A stretch of 64,000 bases of DNA from an uncultured Flavobacteriaceae bacterium (GTDB taxonomy: Bacteria; Bacteroidota; Bacteroidia; Flavobacteriales; Flavobacteriaceae). The translations under genes and the position numbers were made by a program. The notes below the pieces were generated by a model that searched no databases, was not told the origin of the DNA, and saw only the letters and a list, made by a program, of their open reading frames with translations. Shown here piece by piece: positions 428 through 61,455 of the stretch. How positions within the stretch are numbered: position 1 is the stretch's first letter; each line of letters begins with the position of its first letter. The stretch spans positions 73,812 to 137,811 of the forward strand of contig CAVQTP010000008.1 in the NCBI GenBank assembly GCA_963716625.1, given 5' to 3'.

Positions 428-445
428 ACGCTTTCGCGAAAGCGT
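428..445. repeat. Iterated palindrome, perfect 16-mer extended to 18 bp (intergenic)
   Basis: ACGCTTTCGCGAAAGCGT. Confidence 0.95.
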
Positions 446-481
446 AAAAACTCTTGCTAACATATTTCAAATAACAGGATC

Positions 482-1099
482 ATGGCAGAATTCATTAAGC
501 TTTACGAAGAAAATCCAAACCCAAAAGAACTTAAAAGAATTGTAAAAATTCTTAAAGATGGAGGACTTATTATTTATCCCAGTGATACGGTGTATGCGCT
601 AGGGTGTGATATCACAAATACGAAAGCGCTTGAGCGTGTGGCTCAAATTAAAGGGGTCAAATTAGAAAAAGCCAATTTTTCTTTTGTCTGCGAGGATTTG
701 AGCAATTTGTCAGATTATGTAAGACAAATAGACTCTAAAACTTTTAAAATTTTAAAGCGAGCACTTCCAGGCCCCTACACATTTATATTACCTAGTAATA
801 GTAATTTGCCACCTGTTTTTAAGAAGAAAAAAGAAGTAGGCATACGCGTTCCAGATAATGCCATCACCAAGGCCATTGTTCACGCATTAGGAAATCCCAT
901 TGTATCGACATCTATCTATGATGAAGATGAAGTCATTGAGTACACTACTGATCCAGAGCTTATTTTTGAAAAATGGCAATCTCGTGTAGATGTGGTGGTA
1001 GATGGTGGTTACGGGGATAATATTCCGTCTACTGTAATAGATCTTACGGGAGATGAACCTATTTTGGTACGGGAAGGTAAAGGAAGTCCTGAAATATAA
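482..1099 (+). CDS. Sua5/YciO/YrdC family (L-threonylcarbamoyladenylate synthase-like) protein
   Basis: IIYPSDTVYALGC, LPGPYTFIL, GIRVPD and STS motifs. Confidence 0.9.
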   Translation: MAEFIKLYEENPNPKELKRIVKILKDGGLIIYPSDTVYALGCDITNTKALERVAQIKGVKLEKANFSFVCEDLSNLSDYVRQIDSKTFKILKRALPGPYTFILPSNSNLPPVFKKKKEVGIRVPDNAITKAIVHALGNPIVSTSIYDEDEVIEYTTDPELIFEKWQSRVDVVVDGGYGDNIPSTVIDLTGDEPILVREGKGSPEI

Positions 1100-1124
1100 A
1101 GCACTCAATAGTTTTCTTACTATC

Positions 1125-1153
1125 AAATCTCGAGGTTTACTTCGAGATTTTTT
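1125..1153 (+). terminator. Intrinsic terminator
   Basis: AAATCTCGAG-gtttac-TTCGAGATTT followed by a T-run, 25 nt after the stop codon. Confidence 0.75.
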
Positions 1154-1273
1154 ATAGGTATTAGTTCAAAAATATATAAAAGTTGTTGTAACTAAATAAC
1201 CTCTCCGGGTAGGAGAGGCTCTTAACTAAATCTAATAAAGATTTGGGGATTTACTATGCAATTGCTTAGTAAC

Positions 1274-2035
1274 TTATGAACCGACTAAGGCTGTATTTAA
1301 TGGAGTTTCAATAAAGTTATTACGATGGTATGCTAGTTCATCAAGATTTAAGTCGTTAATTTCCTTAGGAAAGATTCCTTCAAAATTGTTGTCAAACAAG
1401 CTTAAACTTTTTAAATTAGGTAGTGATACTATACATCTTGGTATTTCTCCTGTAAAAGAATTACTACTTAATTGTAATTCTTTTAAATTTTTTAAACTTG
1501 AGATGGAATCTGGTATCTCACCTTCTAAAAAATTACCATAAACACTTAATCTCTTAAGGTTTGTGAGACTACTAAGATCGTTAGGTAGCTCACCACTTAA
1601 TTCATTAAAAAATACATCAAAATATTCCAAATTTGTCATTTGAGATATCTCGTTAGGTATAGATCCTTTTATTTTGTTTATAGACAGATTTAAAATTTTA
1701 AGAGCTTTAAGTTCAGCAACGCTAGATGGAATTTCACCCACTAGATTATTGTTATGAAGATTTAAAACTCTTAAGAATTTTAAATCCTTTAAACTGGTAG
1801 GTAATGTACCATTCAGATTATTATTTTTTAAAGTAATAGACATTACATGATTACTTATGATAGTTACACCTTTCCATGCTGTAGGTTCTGCAGTTAGATC
1901 CCAGGTTTGGGTCCAAGCATCACCGTTAGTATAAGCATATAAGTCTAGAAGCGCTTGCTTTTCACTTTCTGGTATAGAAGCAAATGACAGTGAAGTGAGA
2001 AGAGATAATATCAAAGTAAATGTAATTGTTTTCAT
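1274..2035 (-). CDS. Secreted leucine-rich repeat protein (plant-type LRR)
   Basis: Repeats of LxxLxLxxNxLxGxIPxxI; N-cap EKQALLDLY...W...WKGV; signal peptide from ATG 2035 (MKTITFTLILSLL). The track start at 2125 is probably too far upstream. Confidence 0.85.
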   Translation of the reverse strand: MKTITFTLILSLLTSLSFASIPESEKQALLDLYAYTNGDAWTQTWDLTAEPTAWKGVTIISNHVMSITLKNNNLNGTLPTSLKDLKFLRVLNLHNNNLVGEIPSSVAELKALKILNLSINKIKGSIPNEISQMTNLEYFDVFFNELSGELPNDLSSLTNLKRLSVYGNFLEGEIPDSISSLKNLKELQLSSNSFTGEIPRCIVSLPNLKSLSLFDNNFEGIFPKEINDLNLDELAYHRNNFIETPLNTALVGS

Positions 2036-2224
2036 ATTCTTTGGTTGTTTTGATTTGCTTAGTACTAATTTAAATTCTTTTTCCAACCTAGCAATAATTT
2101 TAGCATTATTTTCGATAAAATACACGCAAATTTAACATTTAAACGTCAAATAAGTGTATTTCATCGATGTTTTAGATAGTTTTAGATTATATGTTAATTT
2201 ATTTAACATATTCTTAGATATAGA

Positions 2225-2254: not shown

Positions 2255-2294
2255 CCTTAGGATGATGGATTACACCATCAAGATTTATAAAGAT

Positions 2295-3236: not shown

Positions 3237-4232
3237 TTAGAGAAGCTCCTTGTACGTGCGCTTTCGCGAAATAAAATACCGCCATACTACAGAAAAAATG
3301 CGTGCATATCTTGAGCTATCTTTTAAGGATTTTCTATCTCCTATAAAACTAGGTATGTGTGTGTAAAAACTAAAGTGCGCTCTCAGAATAGCTAGAAAGT
3401 GTTTCGGCTTACCTGCTGCCAAAAATTTTACACCTGCCAAGCCATCTAAGACAAGTCTAGCCAATATTATAAAAAATGCATGTGTCCCTTTTACGTTTTT
3501 CATAATATTGAAAAGAGAATTTCTGAAGTTGTAAAACGTTTTTTGCGCATTGGCAGAGGCGAGGGTAGCGCCACCTAGGTGTAGAACTTCACTAGCTCCG
3601 CATGCTATAATTTTTTTCCCGCGGTTTTTGATACGCCAGCATAGATCGATTTCCTCTTGATGGGCAAAATACCGTTCATCCAGTCCGCCCACTTGCCAAA
3701 AATCTATAGATCTTACAAATAAACAAGCACCACTTGCCCATTGTACCTCGAGGGTGTCATTATATTGTCCTAGATCTTCCTCACAGGTCTCAAAAACCCT
3801 ACCTCTACAAAAAGGATAGCCAAAACGGTCTAAAAATCCCCCAGCCGCTCCCGCATATTCAAAGTGTGTAGGTCGTTTGTAATCTTTAATTTTGGGTTGC
3901 GCCGCGCCTACAAATGAGTTCTCAAAAAGTGCTACCATAGGTGATAACCAGCCTTCCGTAACTTGGACATCACTATTAAGTAGAACGTAAATGTCACTTT
4001 CTATGGCTGTAAGTCCATCATTGTACCCCTTAGCGTAGCCGCCATTCTCTGTATTCTCTATAATAGTGACGGAAGGAAAGTTAGTACGTATATAGCTTAC
4101 CGAGTCATCAGTACTTGCATTATCTATTACAAATACATCTGCCAGGGGTGCGCTATACCTCATGACCGTACTCAAAAACTGTTCGAGCAGGTTTTTTCCA
4201 TTCCAATTTAGTATGACGATCGCAATTTTCAC
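3237..4232 (-). CDS. Glycosyltransferase family 2
   Basis: IAIVILNWNG, DNASTD, LLNSD, SGAC and EEIDLCWR motifs. Confidence 0.9.
   Translation of the reverse strand: MKIAIVILNWNGKNLLEQFLSTVMRYSAPLADVFVIDNASTDDSVSYIRTNFPSVTIIENTENGGYAKGYNDGLTAIESDIYVLLNSDVQVTEGWLSPMVALFENSFVGAAQPKIKDYKRPTHFEYAGAAGGFLDRFGYPFCRGRVFETCEEDLGQYNDTLEVQWASGACLFVRSIDFWQVGGLDERYFAHQEEIDLCWRIKNRGKKIIACGASEVLHLGGATLASANAQKTFYNFRNSLFNIMKNVKGTHAFFIILARLVLDGLAGVKFLAAGKPKHFLAILRAHFSFYTHIPSFIGDRKSLKDSSRYARIFSVVWRYFISRKRTYKELL
3259..3271. repeat. Partial palindrome copy (13/16) in the GT2 3' end
   Basis: CGCTTTCGCGAAA; read as ISRKR on the minus strand. Confidence 0.75.
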
Positions 4233-6212: not shown

Positions 6213-6232
6213 TACGCTTTCGCGAAAGCGTA
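6213..6232. repeat. Iterated palindrome extended to 20 bp (between lptD and ridA)
   Basis: TACGCTTTCGCGAAAGCGTA. Confidence 0.95.
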
Positions 6233-9256: not shown

Positions 9257-10378
9257 ATGCGTAAAAGAATTGATTTTAATAGTTATTTAACCGTTTTGCT
9301 TCTCGTAGGGAGTTTGTTTTGTAACGCTTTCGCGAAAGCGCAGAGCACCCCCTCAAAAAAATTTAAAATCGTACTCGATGCGGGTCATGGAGGTAAAGAC
9401 AGTGGGAATCGAGGTAATGGCTACTATGAGAAAAATATTGCACTTAATGTTGTTTTAGCCATAGGAGAAGAGCTAGCAAAACTCCCCGATGTAGAGGTTA
9501 TCTACACTCGTAAAAAAGATGTTTTCTTAGAATTATGGGAGCGAGCTGATATAGCAAATAATTCAAATGCAGACCTTTTTATAAGTGTACATTGCAATTC
9601 ACATTCATCTCAAGCGAAGGGAACAGAGACTTTTGTATTGGGAATAGGTGGCAATGCAAAAAATATGGCCATTGCAAAAAAAGAGAACTCCGTTATATTA
9701 CTAGAGGAAAATTATGAAAAACGTTATGCTGGCTTTGACCCAAATATGCCAGAGACAACCATAGGTTTAGAACTTATGCAAGAAGAATATCTGGATCAAA
9801 GTATCAATCTTGCAAGTTTTATTGAGAACGAATTTACAAGTACCGTTAAAAGGTCAAGTAGAGGTGTAAAACAGGCGATTTTCTGGGTGTTACACAGATC
9901 TGTCATGCCTAGTGTGCTCATTGAAACGGGCTTTTTGACTAATGATGAAGAGGGTAAATTTCTTAATTCAAAAAATGGACAAGAGAAGATGGCACAGGCT
10001 ATTTCTAAGGCAGTTGTTAACTACAAGGAAAGTATACAAGCAATCGAAAGTGTAGCAATTATTGATAAACCTGAAATGACTTCTAATGAACCTGTCATTG
10101 TGGAAACTCCTATGATAATGTCTGGGATAGAGTTTAAGGTGCAAGTTGCAGCTAGTAAATTGAAGCTAGAAACACAACCTTATAATTTTAAACAACTCAA
10201 TAATGTTACGCGTATGCTGGATAATGGGTTCTATAAATATTATTATGAGTCAACACATGATTATAATCTAGCTCGAAAATTTCTTGAAGAAGCAAAAAGT
10301 GCTGGGTTTGAACAGGCATTTATAGTTTCATTTAATGAGCAAAATATAAAGGTACCTCTTAGTCAAGTGTTAAATTAG
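9257..10378 (+). CDS. N-acetylmuramoyl-L-alanine amidase (Amidase_3)
   Basis: VLDAGHGGKD, EKNIAL, FISVHCN, PSVLIETGFLTN. Confidence 0.93.
   Translation: MRKRIDFNSYLTVLLLVGSLFCNAFAKAQSTPSKKFKIVLDAGHGGKDSGNRGNGYYEKNIALNVVLAIGEELAKLPDVEVIYTRKKDVFLELWERADIANNSNADLFISVHCNSHSSQAKGTETFVLGIGGNAKNMAIAKKENSVILLEENYEKRYAGFDPNMPETTIGLELMQEEYLDQSINLASFIENEFTSTVKRSSRGVKQAIFWVLHRSVMPSVLIETGFLTNDEEGKFLNSKNGQEKMAQAISKAVVNYKESIQAIESVAIIDKPEMTSNEPVIVETPMIMSGIEFKVQVAASKLKLETQPYNFKQLNNVTRMLDNGFYKYYYESTHDYNLARKFLEEAKSAGFEQAFIVSFNEQNIKVPLSQVLN
9325..9340. repeat. Iterated palindrome in the amidase signal peptide
   Basis: CGCTTTCGCGAAAGCG, read as N-AFAKA-Q. Confidence 0.95.
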
Positions 10379-12762: not shown

Positions 12763-13096
12763 CATTGTTTTTATAGTTGCGTTTTTATGTTTTTTCGCTT
12801 TCGCGAAAGCGCAAGTATCCACACAAGATTACCGTATAGATAGTATACAATTTAAAATGTATACGCGTATATATGTAGGTTCACAACTTCAACTAGATAG
12901 TGTCATAGTTAAAAAGATTTTTTGCGATTGGTGTTCTGAGTCACAATTAGATATTTTACGCGAGGAGGCCATGCGACAATCCATGATGGAGAGGTATAAT
13001 CCAAAGTATAAAAAACCTGGACAACATAGATTAGCACTATATGTACGTTTTAGTAAAGAAGATTTTAAAAAATTAAATAGCACAGATGAATACTGA
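12752..13096 (+). CDS. Hypothetical secreted protein (CxxC)
   Basis: 114 aa; signal peptide ending AFAKA-Q; FCDWC; overlaps its neighbours by 11 nt. Confidence 0.7.
   Translation: MKGNIVFIVAFLCFFAFAKAQVSTQDYRIDSIQFKMYTRIYVGSQLQLDSVIVKKIFCDWCSESQLDILREEAMRQSMMERYNPKYKKPGQHRLALYVRFSKEDFKKLNSTDEY
12796..12811. repeat. Iterated palindrome in a signal peptide
   Basis: CGCTTTCGCGAAAGCG, read as F-AFAKA-Q. Confidence 0.95.
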
Positions 13097-15116: not shown

Positions 15117-15132
15117 CGCTTTCGCGAAAGCG
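15117..15132. repeat. Iterated palindrome (intergenic)
   Basis: CGCTTTCGCGAAAGCG followed by TA. Confidence 0.95.
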
Positions 15133-18159: not shown

Positions 18160-18174
18160 CGCTTTCGCGAAAGC
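18160..18174. repeat. Iterated palindrome 15/16 (intergenic)
   Basis: CGCTTTCGCGAAAGCt. Confidence 0.9.
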
Positions 18175-22893: not shown

Positions 22894-23958
22894 ATGGCTG
22901 GAAATACCTACGGAACAGTATTCAAACTTACCACTTACGGAGAATCTCATGGGAAAGCCATCGGCGGTATTATAGATGGTTGCCCTTCTGGACTAGAAAT
23001 TGATTTTGAAGCAATACAGCGTGATTTAGACCGCCGTAAGCCCGGACAGTCTAAGATTGTTACCCAACGCAAAGAACCCGATACGGTAGATTTTTATTCT
23101 GGTATTTTTGAAGGAAAAACTACGGGAACACCTATAGGATTTCAGATCGTAAATACGAATCAGAAATCTAAGGATTATAGCCACATTAAAGATACGTATA
23201 GACCTAGTCACGCAGATTATACCTACGATAAGAAGTATGGTAATCGCGATTACCGTGGTGGTGGACGCTCTTCTGCGAGAGAAACCGCAAGCAGGGTAGT
23301 AGCTGGCGCTATCGCAAAGCAATTTTTAAAAGATATTAAATTTTATGCTTATACGAGTGCCGTGGGAGATCTAGTGATGGAAAAGTCATACCAAGAGGTA
23401 GACTTTTCTGAGATAGAAAAGAACGATGTGAGGTGTGCAGATCCCGCTTTCGCGAAAGCGTGTGAACAAAAAATAAAACAGATAAAGAAAGAAGGTGATA
23501 CCATAGGTGGAGTTATTACGTGTGTAATTCAAAATGTACCCGTAGGTCTTGGAGAACCTGTTTTCGATAAATTGCATGCAGAACTAGGCAAAGCGATGCT
23601 GTCTATTAATGCCGTGAAAGGTTTTGAATATGGAAGTGGGTTTGCTGGAGCACAAATGAGAGGGAGTCATCACAATGATCATTTTAATACAGATGGTACC
23701 ACCAAAACAAATTTGAGTGGTGGTGTACAAGGTGGTATATCCAACGGAATGGATATTTACTTTAAGGTTGCATTTAAACCTGTGGCTACAGTGATGCAAA
23801 AGCAACAAACTATAAACGCTGCAGGTGAAGCTGTAGAGATGCAAGGAAAAGGACGTCACGACCCTTGTGTAGTGCCTCGAGCGGTTCCAATTGTAGAAGC
23901 TATGGCAGCACTCGTCATAGCAGATTTTGTACTTCGAGACAAAACAGCTAGATTGTAG
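22894..23958 (+). CDS. aroC: Chorismate synthase
   Basis: [38 protein letters not shown]; start at ATG 22894 (MAGNTYG). Confidence 0.97.
23445..23460. repeat. Iterated palindrome inside aroC
   Basis: CGCTTTCGCGAAAGCG, read as P-AFAKA-C. Confidence 0.95.
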
Positions 23959-26662: not shown

Positions 26663-27506
26663 ACTTACAATTGCAGAGATGATTGCCAAAATAGGCAGCG
26701 AAGAACCTTTTGAGGCAGTCGCTCACGATTACTCATTCACCTTGAAAATTGAAGAATACACACATTTTTTGTGTGCTGCCGTACATGACGGTCATCAATT
26801 TAGAAAAGAATTATGGGATAAGTGTCTTCGTACAGCTTATGAGCGTTGGTATGAAGAAGATCCATGTACAGGTCAAATGGTACAATCTATGCCTATGGTT
26901 CTTATAGGTCGTGATAGTCGCTTTGAATATGATCTTAATCGAGCGCCAGATGATGCTATATATGAGGATGCCTGGGGAAAGAAATTATGGAAAAGTTCTC
27001 TTTCTTTAGATGAGAAAGAACGAAGCTTAACTAAGCACAGGGAGTTTTACTATGTGGTAGAAGCACTCGTTGCAAAAATGGAAGAAAAATTTGGTGCAGC
27101 CATTGTATTTGATATGCACTCCTATAATTGGAAACGGTGGGATAGGCCAGTACCAGTAGTAAATTTAGGAACTGTAAACATTGATGGAGAACGATTTTCT
27201 GCTTTCGCGAAAGCGTGGAGAGACTCCTTATCAAGTATCGAATTACCTAATGATATTGCAGCTACAGCTGCTATTAATGATACTTTTCAAGGGAATGGAT
27301 ATTTCTTGAAATTTATCACAGCGCATTTCGATCACACACTGGTACTAGCTACAGAGTTTTCAAAAATCTATTGTGATGAGTTAGAAAATGTCATTTATCC
27401 TGAAGTTGTACATGCAATTGAAGAACAATTAAAGGTAAAATTACGTAATCAAGCAACCCTATTTTACAATGATTACATCGTCAAGAATAAGCGATTACCA
27501 AAGTGA
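26655..27506 (+). CDS. N-formylglutamate amidohydrolase family protein
   Basis: AVHDGH, YEEDP, SRFEYDLNR, FDMHSY; overlaps the ligase stop by 8 nt. Confidence 0.85.
   Translation: MLRLTIAEMIAKIGSEEPFEAVAHDYSFTLKIEEYTHFLCAAVHDGHQFRKELWDKCLRTAYERWYEEDPCTGQMVQSMPMVLIGRDSRFEYDLNRAPDDAIYEDAWGKKLWKSSLSLDEKERSLTKHREFYYVVEALVAKMEEKFGAAIVFDMHSYNWKRWDRPVPVVNLGTVNIDGERFSAFAKAWRDSLSSIELPNDIAATAAINDTFQGNGYFLKFITAHFDHTLVLATEFSKIYCDELENVIYPEVVHAIEEQLKVKLRNQATLFYNDYIVKNKRLPK
27201..27215. repeat. Iterated palindrome 15/16 in coding sequence
   Basis: tGCTTTCGCGAAAGCG, read as S-AFAKA-W. Confidence 0.9.
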
Positions 27507-29417: not shown

Positions 29418-29437
29418 TACGCTTTCGCGAAAGCGTA
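29418..29437. repeat. Iterated palindrome extended to 20 bp (intergenic)
   Basis: TACGCTTTCGCGAAAGCGTA. Confidence 0.95.
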
Positions 29438-35799: not shown

Positions 35800-35863
35800 A
35801 GTTCGCTTTCGCGAAAAATGTTTAAACCTATTTACTTTGAATAATATTTTGCGAAAGCGAACT
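35800..35863. repeat. Split palindrome: two part-copies forming a long inverted repeat
   Basis: AGTTCGCTTTCGC (35800-12), 38-nt spacer, GCGAAAGCGAACT (35851-63). Confidence 0.85.
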
Positions 35864-36835: not shown

Positions 36836-37738
36836 ATGAAATTTGGCGTTGTTGAGCATCCAGAGCAAATTGATTTTACTTTACCTCCAGATCATCCTGA
36901 AACGGAGCGTGTTATTAAGGACGCTTTCGCGAAAGCGAAAAACAAAGATCTCGAAGTATTTGTAGGTTGTGCAAAATGGAATAAAGCAGAGCTTAAAGGA
37001 TTTTACCCAAGAGGAACTAAAGATGAACTTACCTATTATACGAGTCAGTTTAATAGCATAGAGCTCAACGCCACGTTTTATCGATTATTTCCAAAAGAAC
37101 AATTTCAAAAATGGTACGATAAAGCGCCAGAGGGTTTTAAATTTTTCCCCAAAATAACAAATATGATCAGCCACCGAAAGCGGTTGATTGATTCTCAAGA
37201 TTTTATTCCAGAGTATGTTGATCACGTTTCTGTACTTCAAGAAAAGTTGGGAACCATATTCTTACAGATGCACAATAATTTCCAACCCAAGGATTTTGAT
37301 CGTGTAGATAATTTTGTCAACCACTGGCCAGATGATTTACCTATTGCTTTAGAATTTAGACACACAGATTGGTTTAATATTCCAGAAGTTGCAGAGCGAT
37401 TGTACTTGCTGCTAGAAGAGAATACCATGGCAAACGTATTAGTAGACACTGCTGGCCGAAGAGATATAATGCACATGAGATTAACTAATGGGGAAGCATT
37501 TATAAGGTATGTAGGAGCAAACCATCCCAGTGATTATGCTAGACTTGATGCATGGGTAGCACGTCTTAAACATTGGGTTGATTTAGGACTACGCAAAATC
37601 CATTTCTTTGTGCATCAAAATGTAGAGCAAGAAAGTACTTTATTATCGGCCTACTTTATTGAGCGGTTGAATAAAGAACTAGGGATACAACTGCACATTC
37701 CATATGCTGCCAATAAGGCTGAACAAACATTATTTTAG
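36836..37738 (+). CDS. DUF72 domain protein
   Basis: VGCAKW, FYPRGT, FNSIELNATFY, LEFRHTDW, FFVHQ. Confidence 0.9.
   Translation: MKFGVVEHPEQIDFTLPPDHPETERVIKDAFAKAKNKDLEVFVGCAKWNKAELKGFYPRGTKDELTYYTSQFNSIELNATFYRLFPKEQFQKWYDKAPEGFKFFPKITNMISHRKRLIDSQDFIPEYVDHVSVLQEKLGTIFLQMHNNFQPKDFDRVDNFVNHWPDDLPIALEFRHTDWFNIPEVAERLYLLLEENTMANVLVDTAGRRDIMHMRLTNGEAFIRYVGANHPSDYARLDAWVARLKHWVDLGLRKIHFFVHQNVEQESTLLSAYFIERLNKELGIQLHIPYAANKAEQTLF
36922..36937. repeat. Iterated palindrome in coding sequence
   Basis: CGCTTTCGCGAAAGCG, read as D-AFAKA-K. Confidence 0.95.
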
Positions 37739-40505: not shown

Positions 40506-41846
40506 TTATAAAAGCCCCCTAGCCTTAACTTCTAGATATTTATTGATGGTATTTATCGTAAGATCTTCTGGTTTTGTAAGTATGGTTTGTATGCCATTTT
40601 TTTCTAGTGTTGCTACCATTACTTTTTTATCATAATTAGATTTTTGTGCAATAGTTTTATGATATACTTCAGGAAGTGTACTTGCCTTTTTATCTATGAG
40701 GCTTTCAAGTTCTGTATTTTGAAAAAAGATTACCACGAGTACATGCTTTCGCGAAAGCGCTTTTAAATAAGGAAGTTGCCTTTCTAGCGCAGATATATGT
40801 TCAAAATTAGTGTATAAAAGCAATAGACTACGCTGGGTAATTTTTCGTTTTACTTGGTTATACAATAGACCAAAATCACTATCTAAAAACTGTGTATTAA
40901 TGTTATATAAAACCTCAAGAATGGTTTGTAAATGTGTTTTTTTACTACTCGCCGGTAGATGATTGAGTATGGTATTTGCAAAGGTGAGCATCCCAACCTT
41001 ATCCTTTTTTTTGAGGGCAATATTGGAAAAAGCCAGCGTGCTATTTATGGCATAATCTAGCAGTGATAGCCCTTTAAACGGCATTTTCATCACTCGACTA
41101 GCATCTATTAGTGCATACACAGGTTGGGACTTTTCATCTTGGAATTGATTTACCATCAAGCTAGCCCGCTTTGCAGTTGCTTTCCAGTTTATAGTACGAG
41201 CATCATCTCCTATCACATAATCTTTGATCTGCTCAAACTCCATCGTATGACCAATACGCCGTATTTTTTTCATGCCCTGTAAGGTGAGTCTATTATCAAG
41301 CGCTAGAAAAGCATACCTTTTCATCTGTATGAATGATGGATACACTTTTACCATTTGATCTTTTTCAAAACGATAGCGTCTTTTTACCAGTGCAATCTTG
41401 GTATTGACATACAGATTGAGATGCCCAAAGGTATATTCACCACGCTCCCTAGGTCTCAAGTAATAAGAAAAATTTTTAGAATCTTTTGCCTCAATATGTA
41501 GCACTTTTGAGAAATCTCGCTTTTGAAATTGTACGGGAATTTCATCAATAATAGCTACTTTAATTTTAAACGGATATTTATTTTCAATCTGAATAATTAA
41601 TTCATTTGCATCACTATTAGAAAACTTCTCTGGCAATGTACGTACTGCTTTAATTTTTCCGCTTGCGCGAAAAAGTACTAAGGCATCAACGAAAATGAGC
41701 ACTACAAAAGCAAGGAGTATTACATTGGTGATGGCGAATAAACTATTAAAGAAATAAGAAAGTATATAGCATACGCCAATGATACCCAAGCAATAAAATA
41801 ATCGCTCATGCACAAAAAAGCCCTTAATGAATCTAATTATAGCCAA
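40506..41846 (-). CDS. DUF58 (vWA-related) membrane protein
   Basis: RGEY.FG, EFEQIKDY..GDD.R.INWKATA, vWA-like IDASR.M. Confidence 0.9.
   Translation of the reverse strand: MAIIRFIKGFFVHERLFYCLGIIGVCYILSYFFNSLFAITNVILLAFVVLIFVDALVLFRASGKIKAVRTLPEKFSNSDANELIIQIENKYPFKIKVAIIDEIPVQFQKRDFSKVLHIEAKDSKNFSYYLRPRERGEYTFGHLNLYVNTKIALVKRRYRFEKDQMVKVYPSFIQMKRYAFLALDNRLTLQGMKKIRRIGHTMEFEQIKDYVIGDDARTINWKATAKRASLMVNQFQDEKSQPVYALIDASRVMKMPFKGLSLLDYAINSTLAFSNIALKKKDKVGMLTFANTILNHLPASSKKTHLQTILEVLYNINTQFLDSDFGLLYNQVKRKITQRSLLLLYTNFEHISALERQLPYLKALSRKHVLVVIFFQNTELESLIDKKASTLPEVYHKTIAQKSNYDKKVMVATLEKNGIQTILTKPEDLTINTINKYLEVKARGLL
40745..40759. repeat. Iterated palindrome 15/16 in coding sequence
   Basis: GCTTTCGCGAAAGCG; read as A-LSRK-H on the minus strand. 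Confidence 0.9.
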
Positions 41847-44137: not shown

Positions 44138-44931
44138 ATTGAATTGTTTAAGGTTTTAAATGCCAATTCCGCTTTCGCGAAAGCGGTCACATCTACTTCA
44201 AAATTTCCGTACCAAATGTAGTCGTATAGAGCGGTTACTTTACTAAATTGTGTTTGTGTCGTAAGATTCTTGATCTCATTGATGTAGTCATGGTTTGTCT
44301 TTTGCACTTCCCAGTGAATAAGATCTTTACTACTCATTTTTTGAAGCACTAAAAGATAGTAGTAACGTACGGCAATACGATAGTTTTCATTACTTATAGC
44401 AGTATCTAGAAGTTGCTGTAAGTCTGGTCTCTGAATTAATGCTTCGTCATCAGAAAGAAATGTTTCTGGAGCCTTAATTTTTTCCATGAGTAGATTACCG
44501 CTGTCCATTTTAAAAAACAGCCAAACAATGAGTGCCACGACTCCCGCTACTAGGAGATATGGCAACAACTTTACTAGAATTGCCCAGATGCCCACAGCCT
44601 CATCTCCGTCTAGTAGCCAGTGGATAAAGCTGTGGTAAAGATCTGTTAATTTCTGCTTGAGACGTGTCCACCAATTATCATCAGGTAAAGCTTCTTTGTA
44701 ATTAAAATCTTCGGCAGCTTGATAGGCTTCAATACTATTTTGGTCAAGAGGCACCTTAGTAATTTCACTGTCGTCGTACTTCAAAAATTGGCGTGGATTT
44801 TTATACGCTTTACTTAAAGTGTCCTTCTCAGAAATAACTCGCGCTATACTATCTGTATTTTGAGGCGCCGTGCTTCCTTTCGCGTAAAGCGTATTAATAA
44901 AGAGGAGTACGACGAAAAGGATTTTACACAT
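44134..44931 (-). CDS. DUF4129 domain membrane protein
   Basis: YRIAVRYYYL, KTNHDY, YDYIWYG. Confidence 0.8.
   Translation of the reverse strand: MCKILFVVLLFINTLYAKGSTAPQNTDSIARVISEKDTLSKAYKNPRQFLKYDDSEITKVPLDQNSIEAYQAAEDFNYKEALPDDNWWTRLKQKLTDLYHSFIHWLLDGDEAVGIWAILVKLLPYLLVAGVVALIVWLFFKMDSGNLLMEKIKAPETFLSDDEALIQRPDLQQLLDTAISNENYRIAVRYYYLLVLQKMSSKDLIHWEVQKTNHDYINEIKNLTTQTQFSKVTALYDYIWYGNFEVDVTAFAKAELAFKTLNNSI
44169..44186. repeat. Iterated palindrome extended to 18 bp in coding sequence
   Basis: CCGCTTTCGCGAAAGCGG, read as T-AFAKA-E. Confidence 0.95.
44877..44891. repeat. Degenerate palindrome copy with a 1-nt insertion, at the DUF4129 signal-peptide end
   Basis: CTTTCGCG-T-AAAGCG; minus strand reads TLYAKG. 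Confidence 0.5.
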
Positions 44932-46894: not shown

Positions 46895-47617
46895 ATGGAT
46901 AACTTTCAAATAGAAACCGCTCAAAATGTTAGTATTTATCAGAATGTCTCTGGTATAGGTGAACGTATCGTCGCATTCATCATAGACGGTATTATTTTAA
47001 TTGCTTACTGGATTTTGTCTTTAATTTTATTAACTCAGTTTGGCTTAGAAAGTCAAGATTTTAGAGATATTTGGGTATTTTATTTAATTATAGGTCTGCC
47101 GATATTCTTGTATTATTTGCTTTTTGAAACTTTCTGGGACGGAAAAACGCCTGGAAAGGCTGCGATGAAACTAAAGGTTGTAAAATTAGATGGTTCAAAG
47201 CCAGGTTTCGGGAGTTTTTTTGTGCGATGGATTATGCGCATTATTGATATATCAATTACCTCTGGAGGAATAGCTGTTGTAAGCATACTTATGACGGAAA
47301 AAGGACAACGTTTAGGAGATATGGCGGCTGGTACAACAGTTATTACAGAGCGAAAGCGTGTAAAACTATCAGATAATTTAATGGTAGAGATTCCTGATAA
47401 CTACCAGCCATCTTACCCACAAGTGACTGTTTTTAATGATAAGGATGTTCAATTAATTAAGATGCTCTTTGTTGATGCGAGAAGAAATGGAAATCACAAT
47501 GTAATTGTAAAACTATCAGATAGACTTAAATCAAAAATGAAAGTGATTCCAGAAGAAAATAATATCGCTTTTGTAGAACGTGTATTGTCAGATTATAATT
47601 ATTATACACAGAAGTAA
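46895..47617 (+). CDS. RDD family protein
   Basis: IETAQNV, GERIVAFIID, GKTPGK, QRLGDMAAGT; probable start ATG 46895, only 34 nt from the divergent SpoIIM ATG. Confidence 0.9.
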   Translation: MDNFQIETAQNVSIYQNVSGIGERIVAFIIDGIILIAYWILSLILLTQFGLESQDFRDIWVFYLIIGLPIFLYYLLFETFWDGKTPGKAAMKLKVVKLDGSKPGFGSFFVRWIMRIIDISITSGGIAVVSILMTEKGQRLGDMAAGTTVITERKRVKLSDNLMVEIPDNYQPSYPQVTVFNDKDVQLIKMLFVDARRNGNHNVIVKLSDRLKSKMKVIPEENNIAFVERVLSDYNYYTQK

Positions 47618-49160: not shown

Positions 49161-49182
49161 ATATGCTTTCGCGAAAGCATAT
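49161..49182. repeat. Variant palindrome with symmetric flank changes (22-bp perfect palindrome)
   Basis: ATATGCTTTCGCGAAAGCATAT. Confidence 0.93.
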
Positions 49183-50948: not shown

Positions 50949-52736
50949 TTATAAGTCAAGATCAAAAGTTCTTCTAAGGGTAGCGAGCGCAGGATTTTGC
51001 TCGAGTAGTTTGTCATATTTTTCTTGAGCAGTATATGCGTATTTGCGTTGTACTTCTTCATTAACGGTGATATGCAGGGTAATATCGTAATTTTGTAATT
51101 TACGTTTAAGGAATTCTAGAAGAGGTCCTTGAGCACGTTCGACTTCCACTTTCATTGTTTCATTTGGAAATTCTAGTTGTATACTAGTTCCATTTAGAGT
51201 TGGCTGGTCTGCTTCTAAATTTGAAGCAATGATTTTTTCACCTTTTAGTATCAACTTTGAAACATATTCACTCCATGCTGCCTGCATTGCAATTTCAGTA
51301 AATGGTTCCGAAGGAAGATTTTCTACATCTACTTTTTTATTTGCTTTTTTTTCTTGTAGTTCTTTTTTCTTTTGTAATCCTTTAAGGGAGAGACCAGAAA
51401 CTCTGTCTTTTCTTACAGTAAGTGTAGGAACAGCGGGTGTAATAGGAGAAGGTTGGGGACTAACTGGATTATTTTTAATAGCTTCTTGACTTATATTAAC
51501 AAAGTGATCTTCATTACTTGAAGCGTTATCTTGAGTACCATTTATAACGGAATCTTTTTCAGATGTAGAGTATTCTTTTGCTAATGAAAGATCTACAGCA
51601 TGAGAAGATGCAATTTTAGAATCTTCAATCTTATAATAAGAGGGTGGAATTAAGAAAGGTTTATTGTTTTTTTTTTCTCCATCAAAAGTGATAGAGGCCA
51701 GCTGCATTAATGATAGTTCTACTAATAATCGTTGATTTCTACTTGCTCTATATTTTAGATCACAAGAGTTTGCAATTTCAATAGCCTCCATAAGAAATGC
51801 CATATCTGTTTGCTTTGATTGCTCGTAATATTTCTTTTTTGTGGTATCTCCCACTTCTAAAAGATGTATGGTGGGTGGATTTTTACACACCATTAAATCT
51901 CTGAAGTGTGAAGCGAGGCCTGCTATAAAATGATGACCATCAAAACCACGAGAAAGGACTTCATTAAATTTCACTAACAGCTGAGGAATATCATTTGCTA
52001 GAATTAAATCTACACATTGAAAATAGGTATCGTAATCTAATACATTTAAATTTTCTGTTACCGCTTTTCGCGAAAGCGTTTTTCCACTAAAACTTACCAC
52101 TCTATCAAAAATTGATAATGCATCACGCATCGCACCATCTGCTTTTTGAGCGATAATGTGTAGTGCTTCCTCATCTGCATCAATTCCTTCTTCGGCAGCA
52201 ATTTGAACAAGATGCTTACGGGCGTCTGTTACCGTGATTCTTTTAAAATCAAAGATCTGACACCGCGATAATATTGTAGGTATAATTTTATGCTTCTCTG
52301 TGGTGGCAAGTATAAAAATTGCGTGCTTAGGAGGCTCTTCTAACGTTTTAAGAAAAGCATTAAAAGCTGAAGATGACAGCATATGAACTTCATCTATTAT
52401 ATAAACCTTATATTTTCCTACTTGTGGAGGTATGCGTACTTGATCAATCAAGCTACGTATATCATCGACAGAATTATTTGAGGCTGCGTCTAACTCGAAT
52501 ACATTAAAAGCAAAATCCTCATCTGGACTGGTATGTTCATCTGTATTAATTTGCTTTGCTAATATACGGGCGCAACTTGTTTTTCCTACTCCTCTAGGAC
52601 CGCAAAAGAGCAACGCTTGTGCCAGGTGATTATGGGCAATTGCATTTTCAAGTGTATTTGTAATAGCCTGCTGCCCTACAACATCTTTAAATGTAGTAGG
52701 TCGGTATTTACGTGCAGATACTATAAATGGTTCCAT
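50949..52736 (-). CDS. dnaX: DNA polymerase III gamma/tau subunit
   Basis: ARKYRP, GPRGVGKT, ELDAASNNSV, IIDEVHML, SRC, GAMRDALS. Confidence 0.96.
   Translation of the reverse strand: MEPFIVSARKYRPTTFKDVVGQQAITNTLENAIAHNHLAQALLFCGPRGVGKTSCARILAKQINTDEHTSPDEDFAFNVFELDAASNNSVDDIRSLIDQVRIPPQVGKYKVYIIDEVHMLSSSAFNAFLKTLEEPPKHAIFILATTEKHKIIPTILSRCQIFDFKRITVTDARKHLVQIAAEEGIDADEEALHIIAQKADGAMRDALSIFDRVVSFSGKTLSRKAVTENLNVLDYDTYFQCVDLILANDIPQLLVKFNEVLSRGFDGHHFIAGLASHFRDLMVCKNPPTIHLLEVGDTTKKKYYEQSKQTDMAFLMEAIEIANSCDLKYRASRNQRLLVELSLMQLASITFDGEKKNNKPFLIPPSYYKIEDSKIASSHAVDLSLAKEYSTSEKDSVINGTQDNASSNEDHFVNISQEAIKNNPVSPQPSPITPAVPTLTVRKDRVSGLSLKGLQKKKELQEKKANKKVDVENLPSEPFTEIAMQAAWSEYVSKLILKGEKIIASNLEADQPTLNGTSIQLEFPNETMKVEVERAQGPLLEFLKRKLQNYDITLHITVNEEVQRKYAYTAQEKYDKLLEQNPALATLRRTFDLDL
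51667..51676 (-). promoter_or_regulatory. A10 run in dnaX; candidate slippage/frameshift site generating gamma
   Basis: GGA GAA AAA AAA AAC AAT AAA at codons 353-359; both alternative frames stop within 8 codons. Confidence 0.7.
52062..52078. repeat. Palindrome copy with a 1-nt insertion inside dnaX
   Basis: CGCTTTTCGCGAAAGCG; minus strand reads T-LSRK-A. Confidence 0.85.
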
Positions 52737-52741
52737 AATTA

Positions 52742-55131: not shown

Positions 55132-55147
55132 CGCTTTCGCGAAAGCG
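55132..55147. repeat. Iterated palindrome between convergent genes
   Basis: CGCTTTCGCGAAAGCG followed by TA. Confidence 0.95.
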
Positions 55148-57655: not shown

Positions 57656-57673
57656 ACGCTTTCGCGAAAGCGT
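57656..57673. repeat. Iterated palindrome (18 bp) between divergent pepT and pyrD
   Basis: ACGCTTTCGCGAAAGCGT. Confidence 0.95.
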
Positions 57674-58838: not shown

Positions 58839-59000
58839 ATGCGCAATTCTCATAAAATAATTTTTGCTTCAATATTAGTTATGTTATTTTCTTTAAAACC
58901 TGAGGTTGCAAGCTTTATACCGCAATGGCTAAAGTTAGCCGTAGCTGGAATTCTTTTAATTTTAGGCTTGTTTTTAATGTGGAAGGAAAGGCAGTGGTAG
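58839..59000 (+). CDS. 53-aa small two-TM membrane protein
   Basis: Manual translation MRNSHKIIFASILVMLFSLKPEVASFIPQWLKLAVAGILLILGLFLMWKERQW; fills the pyrD-LysE gap. Confidence 0.6.
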   Translation: MRNSHKIIFASILVMLFSLKPEVASFIPQWLKLAVAGILLILGLFLMWKERQW

Positions 59001-59097
59001 CAATAGTGTATTTTAAAACTTATATCAAAGATGTATTGTTTTGAATTTTATTTAATATTTATAAAATCTGAACAATTAATACTGATTAACTAAAATT

Positions 59098-59709
59098 TTG
59101 ACAGAATCCATTTTAGCCTTTTTAGCGGCGACTGCCCTTTTAGCCCTTTCTCCAGGACCAGATAACATTTATGTGTTGACGCAAAGTATCGTAAATGGAA
59201 GTAAATCTGGGCTTGCCACCACTGCAGGATTAATATCTGGATGTATTGTACATACCACCTTGGTTGCTTTTGGGATTTCTGCGATAATCGCAGCATCACC
59301 AAAGTTATTTTTGGCAATCAAAATTGCAGGAGCTGCCTATCTTTTATACATAGCCTATAAAGTATATCGTGCAGATGCGCAGATTAATTTAACAGAAGGT
59401 GCTCCAAAAAAAACATACTTAGCTCTTTTTAAGCAAGGAGTCCTAATGAATATTTTAAACCCTAAGGTAACCATTTTTTTTCTAGCATTTTTTCCAGGTT
59501 TCTTGTGGGATCCAGAGGGTAATACAGTATATCAATTTTATATTTTGGGACTAGTATTTATGTTAGAGTCCTTCTTAATATTTGGCGGAATAGCCTTGGT
59601 AGCAGGTAAAATAGCTCCTGTATTAAAAAAAAGTGATACTGCAGGAATTATTTTAAAATGGTTGCAGTTTTTTGTTTTCATAGGGATCGCTATTTTTATA
59701 TTGATTTAG
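59098..59709 (+). CDS. LysE/RhtB family translocator
   Basis: SPGPDNIYV, GAAYLLY, NILNPKV.IFFLAFFPGF. Confidence 0.92.
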   Translation: MTESILAFLAATALLALSPGPDNIYVLTQSIVNGSKSGLATTAGLISGCIVHTTLVAFGISAIIAASPKLFLAIKIAGAAYLLYIAYKVYRADAQINLTEGAPKKTYLALFKQGVLMNILNPKVTIFFLAFFPGFLWDPEGNTVYQFYILGLVFMLESFLIFGGIALVAGKIAPVLKKSDTAGIILKWLQFFVFIGIAIFILI

Positions 59710-61400
59710 ATCTCAAGTTTGTAAACAATTGCTTGCCAAGGCCTCAGTGCAAATTCTTTAAATGTCTTGTCATCAAGAATTTTGTCATTAGAAATCAGCT
59801 TTATTTTTCTATTATACGAGATATCTAATGGTAATGAAAACCGTACCGTATCGTCAGAAAAGTTCAACAAAATCAAAAATCGTTGATCTTCTTGTTGGCG
59901 TGTATAGGCATATACTTGTTCATGTTCTGGCTTTATAATCGTATATGTCCCATAAACAAGTGCTTTATGTAATTTGCGTAAAGCAACCATGTTTTTAAAG
60001 TATGAAAGTACGGAGTCCTTAGATTTTAATTGTTGAGAGACAGTAATCCCCTTACGATAATCTGAATTAACTTCAATCCACGGATCTGCAACTGAAAAAC
60101 CTGCATTATTAGAAGAGTCCCATTGCATAGGAGTACGTGCATTTTCTCTAGCAGTGTGTTGCTCATTTTTCATAAAAGCGTTGAGATCACCGCCACGGTT
60201 TTTTTCTAATTCATATCTATTAATGGTATTAATATCTCTATAATCTTCAATACCTGAAAACTTGACATTTGTCATTCCAATCTCATCGCCTTGGTAAAAG
60301 TAGGGGGTGCCTCTCATGGTTAGTAAAAAAGTGTGCAAAAGTGTAGCGCTGTTTTTCCAGTGTTCTTGAGAATCATTGCCCCACCTACTTACTGCTCTAG
60401 GAAAGTCATGATTTGCCAGAAATAACGATCCCCATCCATGGTTTGCAAATGCATGGTCCCATTTTGTAAAAATCTCTTTAAATTCAGACAACTTCCATCT
60501 CTCTTCTTTTAGAGTAAAAACCTCTCCAGGAGCACGGTCCAGACTCATTAGGTCAAAATGAAAAAACATATCCATTTCTTTTCGGTCTTCATGCACAAAA
60601 TCTAATGCTTGGTCTAGGGCTATGCCTGGTCCTTCCCCCACAGTAAAAGCGTCATATTTAGATATTACCTCCTTGTTGAGCTCATTGAGATATTCATGTA
60701 CTTTAGGGCCATTTGCATAGTATGCTATAAACTCGTGCGGTTCTTGCGCAAGTATTTCTGGATAGCTAGTATCTTTGCTTATAAACGGAATCACATCCAT
60801 ACGGAAACCGTCTACGCCCTTTTGAAACCAGAAATGCATCATATGATAGATTTCTTGTCTAACTTTTCGGTTTTCCCATTTGAGATCTGGTTGTTTTACT
60901 GAAAAATAATGGAGGTAGTAAGCATTGGTCTGCTCATCATACTGCCAGGCATCCTCATTTACATCAAAATAGCTCCAACGCCTTGGAGGATTGCCATGCT
61001 CTGCGGGCCACCAGTGAAAGTAGTCTCGATACGGATTTTCTCTAGATTTCCTACTCTCTTGAAACCATCGGTGTTCATCACTACAATGATTTACAACTAG
61101 ATCCATCACAAGCTTTAGTCCACGGGCTTTCATACCAGCGAGTAGTTGTTCAAAGTCGGCCATTGTGCCGAATTCTGTCATTATTTTTTGATAATCGCGT
61201 ATATCATAACCGTTGTCGTCATTAGGAGAATCGTAAATAGGGTTGAGCCATATAATATCAACTCCTAAGCTTTGTATATAGTCTAGCTTATCAATAATAC
61301 CCTGTAAATCACCTATACCATTTCCAGTTGTATCGTTAAAAGATCTTGGGTAAATTTGATATACCACTCCTTCTTTCCACCAAGTTTCTTTGAGACTCAT
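59706..61400 (-). CDS. GH13 alpha-glucosidase / oligo-1,6-glucosidase
   Basis: WWKEGVVYQIYPRSF, DNGYDIRDY, DLVVNH, QPDL, GFRMDVI, NHD, RTPMQW. Confidence 0.93.
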   Translation of the reverse strand: MSLKETWWKEGVVYQIYPRSFNDTTGNGIGDLQGIIDKLDYIQSLGVDIIWLNPIYDSPNDDNGYDIRDYQKIMTEFGTMADFEQLLAGMKARGLKLVMDLVVNHCSDEHRWFQESRKSRENPYRDYFHWWPAEHGNPPRRWSYFDVNEDAWQYDEQTNAYYLHYFSVKQPDLKWENRKVRQEIYHMMHFWFQKGVDGFRMDVIPFISKDTSYPEILAQEPHEFIAYYANGPKVHEYLNELNKEVISKYDAFTVGEGPGIALDQALDFVHEDRKEMDMFFHFDLMSLDRAPGEVFTLKEERWKLSEFKEIFTKWDHAFANHGWGSLFLANHDFPRAVSRWGNDSQEHWKNSATLLHTFLLTMRGTPYFYQGDEIGMTNVKFSGIEDYRDINTINRYELEKNRGGDLNAFMKNEQHTARENARTPMQWDSSNNAGFSVADPWIEVNSDYRKGITVSQQLKSKDSVLSYFKNMVALRKLHKALVYGTYTIIKPEHEQVYAYTRQQEDQRFLILLNFSDDTVRFSLPLDISYNRKIKLISNDKILDDKTFKEFALRPWQAIVYKLEI

Positions 61401-61440
61401 TGTAATGTATTTAATGAAAAACGAATTTAGGGATAGATAT

Positions 61441-61455
61441 GCTTTCGCGAAAGCG
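61441..61455. repeat. Iterated palindrome 15/16 between divergent GH13 and pyrR
   Basis: tGCTTTCGCGAAAGCG followed by TA. Confidence 0.9.

Follow-up and report, generated by a model that had tools for sequence, protein, structure and literature searches.

The window, a stretch of 64 kb from a marine Dokdonia-like bacterium of the Flavobacteriaceae, carries many copies of a 14-bp palindrome, GCTTTCGCGAAAGC, both between and inside genes. An earlier note on this DNA had claimed 16 exact and four one-armed copies, which were all found at their places on recounting. The features are as follows, with strand given for the one-armed copies and the half-site, the others being unstranded:

411..462, example of the ~52-bp footprint: core, GTAA-type extension and G-poor, C/A-rich tract on each outward strand
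430..443, exact palindrome, intergenic; degraded in genome G009
3259..3271, minus strand, one-armed copy, left arm intact, inside a glycosyltransferase-like ORF (3237-4232); mid-gap
6216..6229, exact palindrome, intergenic; retained in G009
9326..9339, exact palindrome near the start of an amidase ORF (9257-10378), read as AFAKA
12797..12810, exact palindrome, intergenic by gene calls, enclosed by the longest ORF reading (12752-13096)
15118..15131, exact palindrome, intergenic
18161..18174, exact palindrome, 10 bp past a stop codon
20449..20461, minus strand, one-armed copy, left arm intact, in a FAD oxidoreductase ORF (19909-21669); same in G009; mid-gap
23446..23459, exact palindrome in chorismate synthase (aroC)
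27201..27214, exact palindrome in ORF 26655-27506
29421..29434, exact palindrome, 12 bp past a stop codon
35804..35816, minus strand, one-armed copy, left arm intact; absent in G009
36923..36936, exact palindrome in ORF 36836-37738
40745..40758, exact palindrome in ORF 40506-41846
41660..41672 (approximate), minus strand, one-mismatch one-armed copy; perfect one-armed site in G009
44171..44184, exact palindrome in ORF 44134-44931
47350..47358, plus strand, half-site GCGAAAGCG within a 5-kb gap
49165..49178, exact palindrome, intergenic
52066..52078, plus strand, one-armed copy within dnaX, right arm intact and left side with an extra T; mid-gap
55133..55146, exact palindrome, intergenic
57658..57671, exact palindrome, intergenic by gene calls
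61441..61454, exact palindrome, intergenic

The copy in dnaX is identical in G009 and is therefore not a sequencing error. The copy at 35804..35816 has its broken arm facing a full site 1.1 kb away. Half-sites of the class GCGAAAGCG number 45 in the genome and lie farther from the cores than expected by chance. The 19 gaps of the window agree with the previously claimed values to within 1 bp, 16 of them lying within 2.2-3.9 kb, and no gap among the 16 full cores is indeed shorter than 2.2 kb, the minimum being 2,220 bp (P = 7.9e-6 under random placement). Three partial copies are located near gap middles, as had been described, with the same tendency genome-wide.

Throughout the genome (G000, 87% complete), GCTTTCGCGAAAGC is present in 705 exact copies versus 0 for its reversed control, and a perfect-palindrome test found it over-represented and conserved both in genes and in spacers, a HIP1-type trait. 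Each site consists of two overlapping directional units, TTTCGCGAAAGCG on each strand, with a common 10-bp core; both arms are intact in 705 of the 839 sites (84%) and 132 sites are one-armed, which together with a polar loss of arms in Dokdonia reveals a directional unit, a Chi-type trait. Genes contain 335 of the exact copies, 52% of sites are intergenic, many directly 3' of stop codons, and convergent, divergent and tandem spacers hold sites at similar rates. In a comparison at ~80% identity, 95 of 110 sites were retained, the core positions of the orthologue alignment being 93-100% identical versus a background of 80%, and the aligned orthologous sites differ via substitutions, without insertion. 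Sites arise by substitution. Insertion and target-site duplication were rejected for the aligned sites, which show substitutions only, and a REP/MITE insertion repeat was rejected on the same differences and on the copies lying in genes. Each arm is flanked by a 16-nt G-poor tract with a GC skew of -0.5, which holds for sites within and between genes and for every codon position; the G-poor, C/A-rich tract of the footprint, 10-25 nt from the centre, is a genome-wide average and not a call for each site. No clear strand-specific mutational footprint was seen past ~150 bp, and graded arm strength among full sites gave no signal against gap length.

The non-random spacing claimed for the window extends to the genome, where distances between sites are under-dispersed relative to random placement (CV 0.674 vs 0.997 +- 0.038), and this evenness persists after conditioning on gene layout (CV 0.67 vs 0.93-0.98 in architecture nulls). 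Gaps below 1 kb amount to 16 of 697 versus ~153 at random and 120-137 under two gene-architecture nulls, those below 500 bp to 13 of 831, and short gaps are also depleted in three relatives; genic and intergenic sites repel each other. A gene-layout artefact was rejected, the evenness exceeding the architecture nulls. Pair correlation takes values of 0.07, 0.12, 0.59 and 0.90 in the first four 500-bp bins and 0.89-1.24 from there out to 20 kb, and the chance of a gap ending increases from 0.016 to ~0.26 per 500 bp by 3 kb before reaching a plateau, a soft exclusion. Copies keep apart at distances under ~1.5 kb, and no periodicity extends over longer ranges.

The ~3-kb period that had been read from the window was not borne out: pair correlation is flat, the variance of k summed gaps rises linearly, successive gaps are uncorrelated (rho 0.025) and no spectral peak appears between 1.5 and 150 kb against a shuffled-gap null (p = 0.29; Fourier test, six contigs). 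The window is a regular extreme, with 84% of its gaps in 2.2-3.9 kb versus 40% genome-wide, and 0.4% of 19-gap runs reach 16 within that range. The parallel with HIP1 periodicity also fails, HIP1 order extending over 10-90 kb according to parts of PMC5861425, where a damped-sine method rather than the present Fourier test is used, and none of that kind being found here. In fits to 811 of the 831 gaps, those of 9 kb and above being dropped, a lattice model allowing for absent sites (m 2.4 kb, sd 1.1 kb; AIC 2934) was about equal to soft exclusion (AIC 2931), the exponential model being far worse than both (AIC 3309); the lattice was rejected because long-range order is absent. When the 132 one-armed sites are ranked by relative distance from the nearer full site, they number 7/19/24/31/51 from edge to centre, weak copies tend to fill large gaps and 9-bp half-sites likewise lie mid-gap. 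Site-free stretches of 14-20 kb are tolerated, and the long gaps that lack sites consist mainly of islands and genes for repeat proteins.

In relatives, the loss of a site is offset by a nearby gain in 10 of 13 cases versus 4.0 expected (P = 2.5e-4). This compensation, the evenness, the gap-filling weak copies, the conservation and the substitution origin uphold the proposal of the earlier note that selection acts on site density and not on specific genes. Arm intactness increases with the length of the gap faced (0.56, 0.74, 0.88, then 0.91-0.97). In close pairs from 34 genomes of the genus Dokdonia the outer arm is intact in 527 cases versus 309 for the inner arm, with an outer excess in 26 of the 34 genomes, and in pairs closer than 500 bp inner versus outer losses stand at 11:0; no such polarity can be seen in the two carrier genera beyond Dokdonia (counts of 5:4 and 3:3), where there are few close pairs. 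One-armed sites show a weak replichore lean in four genomes (69:41, 65:46, 55:41 and 55:50; 52-63%), the origins being placed by GC skew, by parS-like sites or by the location of addAB, and strong replichore polarisation, a Chi-type trait, is absent from all four.

GC content at fourfold sites declines with distance from the palindrome, from 0.29 to 0.245, forming a halo of 1-2 kb. The slope is -0.0114 per kb within gaps (shift null 0.000 +- 0.002) and -0.0107 per kb within genes (shift null 0.000 +- 0.003), and the halo exceeds that of all 39 GC-rich pseudo-motifs tried. It was also seen in G030 (p 0.015 and 0.01 in two stretches) and G020 (0/200 shifts) and was not significant in G009 and G305, while orthologues with differing site distance, a weak test, gave four slopes between -0.0135 and +0.0018, for a hand-pooled value of about -0.008 +- 0.004. 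Consequently, patches richer in GC may in part be where sites originate. Past 30 bp, synonymous divergence from G009 shows no variation with distance. Among the functions first offered, a repair or replication landmark is retained as the best fit to the halo, with nucleoid looping as a possible alternative. The conservation, the substitution origin, the loss-gain compensation, the polar arm decay, the G-poor flanks and the synonymous GC halo are new here.

The motif is clade-limited. Genomes titled Leeuwenhoekiella have 5-254 copies per strand, sister genomes span 5 to 900 copies, and within non-carrier genomes the site is found on a shared conjugative element and on a metal island. A dialect lead, ATCGTATACGAT, never exceeded 10 copies in any of the 301 genomes searched and is not a genome-wide counterpart; with the foreign C7 segment set aside, the HIP1 octamer GCGATCGC has 17 occurrences. 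In viral contigs, ~250 stretches were estimated from 31 of 64 parts scanned, near the chance estimate, with none carrying more than 3 stretches among 80 loci listed, and phage and plasmid BLAST with a 32-nt query, a weak test, returned nothing from these hosts. Profile searches for a reader protein (PF12705, PF02195, PF00145, PF03772, PF06470 and PF00263, 5 genomes each) found no carrier-specific family, and a motif and charge screen of the G000 gene calls found no standout candidate. Within the C5 family, a methyltransferase (PF00145) was present in 2 of 3 carriers and had no match in the complete carrier G305.

Taken together, these results are tentatively explained by a landmark that is read in both directions by a recombination or repair machine tracking along DNA, Chi- or HIP1-like and selected for coverage. 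Such a machine would work 1-2 kb outward from each arm, and a site would be worth retaining only where a neighbour does not already serve the DNA; redundant sites near neighbours would thus not be retained and even spacing would result without any ruler. The halo would be left behind by tracts of gene conversion or repair that are anchored at the sites. Against this reading, the Chi sites known so far are short, lack palindromic symmetry and are strongly polarised with the replichores, whereas the lean of the one-armed sites is weak. The reader could be a helicase-nuclease or strand-invasion factor, for example the resident AddAB (AddA- and AddB-like genes are present in carriers and equally so in two non-carriers), or another partner, and may recognise the GCGAAAGC mini-hairpin once the DNA is unwound. 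According to parts of the respective sources, HIP1 raises homologous integration in Synechococcus (10.1101/2024.09.10.611283) and the spacing of DUS corresponds to the length of conversion tracts (PMC2397512). If tracking simply stopped at the first encounter, with additive cost, loss of facing arms would, on reasoning, not be predicted, and the landmark model therefore needs coupling between its two directions. In a fuller form, conceivable but doubtful as a whole, a bidirectional hairpin-forming landmark every 2-4 kb would be a novel type of chromosomal signal, its facing arms delimiting kb-scale recombination or repair domains, with a lineage-specific reader in hosts without canonical SMC, compensatory re-tiling by point mutation, a bending of synonymous composition and adoption by conjugative elements passing through the hosts.

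A DNA uptake sequence, rather unlikely here, would be spread by uptake and recombination, through a receptor preferring site-bearing fragments, until most fragments hold one. The clade-limited, substitution-made motif, its scarcity in islands and its biased 3' flank as in USS agree with uptake; ComEC is present in 5 of 5 genomes, in G000 an element with a gene resembling serine recombinases interrupts the YifB/ComM-family gene, conversion tracts would likewise produce a halo, and parts of PMC7811141 indicate that even spacing is expected under molecular drive. For uptake from duplex DNA, however, a single orientation would suffice, yet most sites are both-armed (705/839) and arm loss is polar; USS cluster (23% within 100 bp, in parts of PMC7811141) whereas palindrome copies avoid one another; secretin matches were obtained in 2 of 5 carriers, the 3 without a match including two complete genomes; and each of the three rRNA operons found in G000 has sites in its leader and its spacer.

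The nucleoid organiser of the earlier note, by which a core-bound protein would bridge the facing arms of neighbours or load a sliding clamp to give 1.5-5-kb loops, is unlikely, although it accounts directly for an arm mattering only toward the gap it faces. It is also in keeping with gene direction being irrelevant to placement and with site density being even round the chromosome, and no SMC hinge protein was found in the carriers searched, so that a lineage-specific organiser is conceivable. Nevertheless, long-range order is absent, the 14-20-kb empty stretches are tolerated, the Leeuwenhoekiella-titled genomes are viable with their few copies, one PF02195 gene and no extra ParB-family copy was found in each of 3 carriers (G000 being 87% complete), and the halo requires an additional assumption.

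Single-strand initiation is improbable; an unwound arm would fold into the GCGAAAGC mini-hairpin, exclude SSB and direct primase or fork restart to the adjacent G/T-rich template on the scale of Okazaki fragments. According to parts of PMC13037366, this hairpin has a Tm of 76.5 C, is bound poorly by SSB and is present where priming takes place in phage G4. The flank has the length of a primer and one-armed sites lean to the lagging-strand orientation in 4 of 4 genomes tested, but this lean is only ~58% and 84% of sites are both-armed. Furthermore, the TTT outside the hairpin is nearly always retained (132 of 155 non-palindromic CGCGAAAGC) and the flanks of broken arms remain biased (G 0.10 vs 0.085). 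ViennaRNA folds the whole 14-22-mer stem and not the mini-hairpin, and therefore provides no test of this idea.

It is very improbable that the exclusion zone arises as a by-product, with closely spaced copies purged for promoting deletion or hairpins whatever the role of a single site. A broken arm does shorten the shared repeat, and repeat-mediated deletion declines with distance over a similar range, yet losing either arm would shorten it equally and the inner one is lost; weak 9-bp half-sites also lie mid-gap, and abundance and halo are left unexplained. A gene-layout artefact, a transcription signal or a selfish inserted repeat is scarcely credible despite the many intergenic sites right past stop codons, given the architecture nulls, the genic-intergenic repulsion, the substitution differences between orthologues, a T-rich flank on the 5' and not the 3' side, opposite to a terminator, and no Rfam match in the window.

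What role HIP1, uptake sequences and other motifs abundant on chromosomes play is a long-standing question. The palindrome is long enough for unambiguity and offers handles that HIP1 lacks, namely a 1-2-kb range, separable arms, a flank requirement and a composition halo, sister genomes of contrasting copy number being a further one. Since the hosts are culturable marine bacteria, the uptake, Chi-like, looping and priming models are testable via an oligonucleotide and one-armed variants, and genetic work in these bacteria may be affected should recombination or persistence of DNA depend on the site.

Among known systems, HIP1 (GCGATCGC, cyanobacteria) is likewise abundant, perfect, present in genes and spacers, conserved, substitution-made and non-randomly spaced, with a link to recombination in one study. 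It is 8 bp long, whereas the palindrome is a different 14-mer (14-22 bp, one per 4 kb) of Flavobacteriaceae, with short-range exclusion instead of 10-90-kb periodicity, separable directional arms, biased flanks and no C5 methyltransferase match in complete G305. Neisseria DUS and Pasteurellaceae USS share its clade limits, point-mutation origin, scarcity in islands, few single-mismatch copies, conversion-tract-scale spacing and biased 3' flank, but they are non-palindromic and often paired within 100 bp, while the palindrome avoids close pairs, loses arms polarly and lacks a secretin match in 3 of 5 carriers. Chi (RecBCD/AddAB) resembles it in its directional unit, its density of one per 3-5 kb of core DNA, its G/T-rich 5' context and the AddAB-like genes; in contrast, the palindrome is a 13-nt unit fused head to head, with ~58% replichore bias and strong under-dispersion, and for it the activity of Chi, which attenuates the RecBCD/AddAB nuclease and favours loading of RecA, is putative. 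The parS/ParB and Noc sites (CTPase clamps) are 14-16-bp palindromes with similar TTTC...GAAA half-sites, and kb-scale spreading from such sites would render close ones redundant; unlike them, ~800 sites lie round the whole chromosome, with separate parS-like sites near the origin and one ParB-family gene. Finally, the mini-hairpin of the phage G4 origin is an 8-mer identical to that in each palindrome arm, here chromosomal, in ~1,500 arms per genome and with an obligatory TTT outside the hairpin.

The palindrome GCTTTCGCGAAAGC (consensus TTACGCTTTCGCGAAAGCGTAA) is the commonest 12- to 16-mer family within the window. Exact copies number 705 in the genome containing the window (G000; 2.87 Mb assembled into 8 contigs, completeness 87%), which also has the 10-bp core TTTCGCGAAA 839 times and just 84 sites with one mismatch; the most frequent frame of genic sites reads AFAKA (207 of 335). 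One window protein shares a common cluster at 90% identity with Dokdonia LptD and, among 80 fetched orthologous loci, the core was present at all 12 titled Dokdonia. The 33 other genomes of the genus carry 70 to 906 copies each, while the palindrome is absent from all 27 other-genus genomes of the same search. A survey of 300 family genomes, each from a different genus, found hundreds of copies only in the representative of the window's own genus and in G071 and G305, two carriers outside Dokdonia. One-arm units number 5 to 254 per strand in the 16 genomes behind Leeuwenhoekiella- or Flavimarina-titled loci, which looks like decay or rise of the palindrome in a sister group. Low to intermediate copy numbers were observed in G357-G372 (Leeuwenhoekiella-titled), G085 (74 TTCGCGAA, spread over the genome) and G014 (70 exact palindromes), and these genomes form a natural gain or decay series useful for locating the reader of the palindrome. 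Full-text literature searches (titles and listings, with most subscription journals outside their coverage) returned no published description of it.

The spacing of the palindrome is an exclusion and not a period. An earlier note on this DNA had described the copies as quasi-periodic at about 3 kb; its coordinates, its 19 gaps and its count of 16 gaps within 2.2-3.9 kb were correct on recount, and the probability that 16 randomly placed sites leave no gap below 2,220 bp is 7.9e-6. The evenness holds genome-wide, with a gap CV of 0.674 compared with 0.997 ± 0.038 under the random null and 16 of 697 gaps shorter than 1 kb compared with about 153 for random placement. When gene layout was controlled by moving each intergenic site to a spacer matched in type and length and each genic site to a gene comparable in length to its own (gene calls of G000, some of whose ORFs are split, being those of our own hexamer model), 137 or 120 such gaps were expected against the same 16; genic and intergenic sites also repel each other. 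The period, on the other hand, did not stand. A spectral scan from 1.5 to 150 kb gave no peak (p = 0.29), the pair correlation is depleted at distances under 1.5 kb and then flat out to 20 kb, the structure factor is that of a shuffled-gap null, successive gaps in G000 are uncorrelated, and dividing the variance of k summed gaps by k gives a steady 2.3-2.5. The chance of a gap ending, per 500 bp, rises from 0.016 to about 0.26 by 3 kb and reaches a plateau thereafter.

The window is a regular extreme of its genome: its gap CV of 0.34 is matched by 2.5% of 19-gap runs genome-wide, and 0.4% of them place 16 of their gaps within 2.2-3.9 kb. Gaps shorter than 1 kb are likewise depleted in 400 kb of G009 (3 vs 27.6 expected), two stretches of G030 (3 vs 16.7 and 7 vs 35.8), 600 kb of G305 (6 vs 19.5) and 400 kb of G020 (9 vs 16.9; CV 2.16, yet a median gap of 3.1 kb). 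The even spacing is real, general and actively maintained, and the wording "quasi-periodic at 3 kb" overstates it.

The palindrome is made of two directional units. Among the 839 cores, both arms are intact in 705, one in 132 and none in 2, and the proportion of intact arms varies with the gap that the arm faces: it is 56% where that gap is below 500 bp, 74% for gaps of 0.5-1 kb, 88% for those of 1-1.5 kb and 91-97% for longer ones. In pairs closer than 500 bp, 11 broken arms were inner, facing the neighbouring site, and none outer. Pairs 20-510 bp apart in 34 genomes of the genus kept both outer arms in 527 cases vs both inner arms in 309, the outer count being higher in 26 genomes, lower in 3 and tied in 5 (kin, not independent observations). 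Against this pattern stand outer:inner counts of 5:4 in G071, 3:3 in G305, and 8:7 and 5:5 in two further carriers, counts in which G381 duplicates G022. In the pooled fetched stretches, arm decay was restricted to gaps below 500 bp (0.62 vs 0.85, 13 arms). Some one-armed pairs 30-50 bp apart form one long inverted repeat, and other one-armed sites adjoin a different repeat:

G000 C7:981,072 and 981,103: one long inverted repeat, 2 kb upstream of comEC
G030 C1:101,677-101,723: pair of the same kind
G022 C1:386,158-386,218: pair of the same kind
G022 C1:434,434-434,930 and C3:8,384-8,790: one-armed sites beside a REP-like repeat of the CTGAGCG..GTCGAAG type

The flanks are biased in composition. 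On the outward strands, at positions 10-25 from the centre, G is 3-15% and C is raised (skew about -0.5), fading by position 30; the bias is common to sites inside and outside genes, holds at each of the three codon positions, and is mostly kept at broken arms. One-armed sites favour one replichore orientation, by 69:41 in G000 and, in three complete genomes whose origins were estimated, by 65:46, 55:41 and 55:50; in these three, 16 unlisted sites were assigned by contig-end position. In G000, the GC skew switches and parS-like sites occur close to addAB, at about 450-485 kb of C7, and, since dnaA is about 1 Mb from the addAB/parS-like region in G030, G009 and G305, the origin appears unlinked from dnaA.

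A composition halo surrounds the sites: fourfold-degenerate GC is 0.29 at less than 200 bp from a site and declines to 0.245 at distances over 2-3 kb, on either side of the site and in both gene directions. The slope per kb is -0.0114 with gap and -0.0107 with gene fixed effects, compared with 0.000 ± 0.002 (gap) and ± 0.003 (gene) in 40 circular shifts, a mean of -0.001 to -0.002 (lowest -0.008) for 39 similarly abundant GC-rich hexamers, and +0.002 for random spacers; the fit constrains the decay length loosely, to about 0.7-3 kb. The halo recurs in G030 and G020, and the within-gap slope has the same sign, non-significantly, in G009 and G305. A comparison of orthologous codons lying at unequal distances from a site in different genomes gave a weak test of whether sites shape GC or the reverse. 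Since conversion or repair tracts are what the halo points to, the reading tentatively favoured is that of a landmark for recombination or repair. Uptake with molecular drive would account for the evenness and the halo, but leaves the arm polarity unaccounted for and is considered unlikely.

The pattern is conserved and also re-made. Of the 110 sites in a 343-kb alignment with G009 (about 80% identity), 95 persist, with core position identity of 93-100%, and the differing sites changed by substitutions. Partial copies do lie mid-gap, as had been noticed in the window: one-armed, GCGAAAGCG-only (n=45 in G000) and GCTTTCGCAAAAGC (n=19) sites sit towards the centres of large gaps, at a median of about 1,750 bp from a core vs 903 for random points. 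The compensation of lost sites by nearby gains, suggested as a check, was also observed, as 10 of the 13 sites that are specific to the relative and map less than 1 kb from a G000 site with a readable fate adjoin a site lost in the relative, vs 4.0 expected. In one case, at the level of single arms, a full site of G009 is matched in G000 by a right-armed site and, 1,348 bp upstream of it, a new left-armed one (C5:192127 and 193475). Compensation follows partly from exclusion in each genome, yet shows that the pattern is re-made and not merely inherited.

By their protein starts, most gaps above 11.5 kb cover polysaccharide, transposase-like, mobile or giant-repeat regions. Site clusters in several non-carrier Flavobacteriaceae genomes belong to a common heavy-metal island and a Bacteroidota conjugative element, and their sites are kept across diverged copies. 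The three rRNA operons found in G000 all have sites in their leader and 16S-23S spacer, and none surrounds the one operon seen in G305. The following regions were recorded:

L021-L040 (G195, G158, G333, G172, G196, G183, G287) and G000 C5:503-540 kb: palindrome-bearing copper/heavy-metal island, encoding RND pumps, P-type ATPases and a multicopper oxidase, and conjugative element; G196 and G183 both keep a pair of one-armed sites, one left and one right, at a distance of 790 bp
L361 (G000 C3:228,001-239,000): element of about 8 kb with a serine-recombinase-like gene, halving a YifB/ComM-family ATPase gene; comM-interrupting elements are known in transformable bacteria
G000 C7:1-76,000 (L363 = 1-20,000): foreign start with filamentous-haemagglutinin-domain genes, no palindrome and 89 HIP1 octamers GCGATCGC vs 17 in the rest of G000; probably cyanobacterial DNA joined into the assembly

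The foreign segment contributed no gap, was kept in the random null for the CV and was excluded from the GC analyses. Another perfect palindrome, ATCGTATACGAT, occurs in 1-10 copies in 66 of 301 family genomes (including loci L282, L287 and L288), often within one 10-60-kb region, and may serve as a regional binding site comparable to matS or parS.

Family profile searches of carriers and non-carriers found no reader of the palindrome; AddA-/AddB-like genes, one ParB and ComEC are present in both alike. A C5 methyltransferase was not found in the complete genome G305, nor an SMC hinge in any of 5 genomes searched, and a secretin match was obtained in 2 of 5 carriers.

Taken together, the analysis shows the palindrome to be a conserved two-way signal selected for coverage, and a range of 1-2 kb recurs in three separate measures, namely exclusion, arm decay and the GC halo. 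The value of a site or arm may saturate with the DNA served, which would produce evenness without a ruler. A plain Chi-like stop with additive cost would give no facing-arm decay; the machine would have to couple the two directions, be halted at the next site or be unable to load where intervals are short. Looping keeps some weight for the same reason, that such a stop would leave the facing-arm decay unaccounted for, and it is rated slightly below uptake. Each arm also contains GCGAAAGC, according to PMC13037366 a hairpin with a Tm of 76.5 C present at the G4 priming site, which suggests one way in which the palindrome may be recognised once DNA is unwound, and also a priming role of the arm hairpin, the latter quite improbable.

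Among known systems, HIP1 had been invoked as a parallel for the periodicity, but its period of 10-90 kb (PMC5861425) differs in kind; the DUS distance files of PMC2397512 are pertinent to the comparison. Set against HIP1, DUS/USS and Chi (comparison literature: PMC1939737, PMC7811141, PMC2397512, 10.1101/2024.09.10.611283), the palindrome fails a defining test of each, yet works like them.
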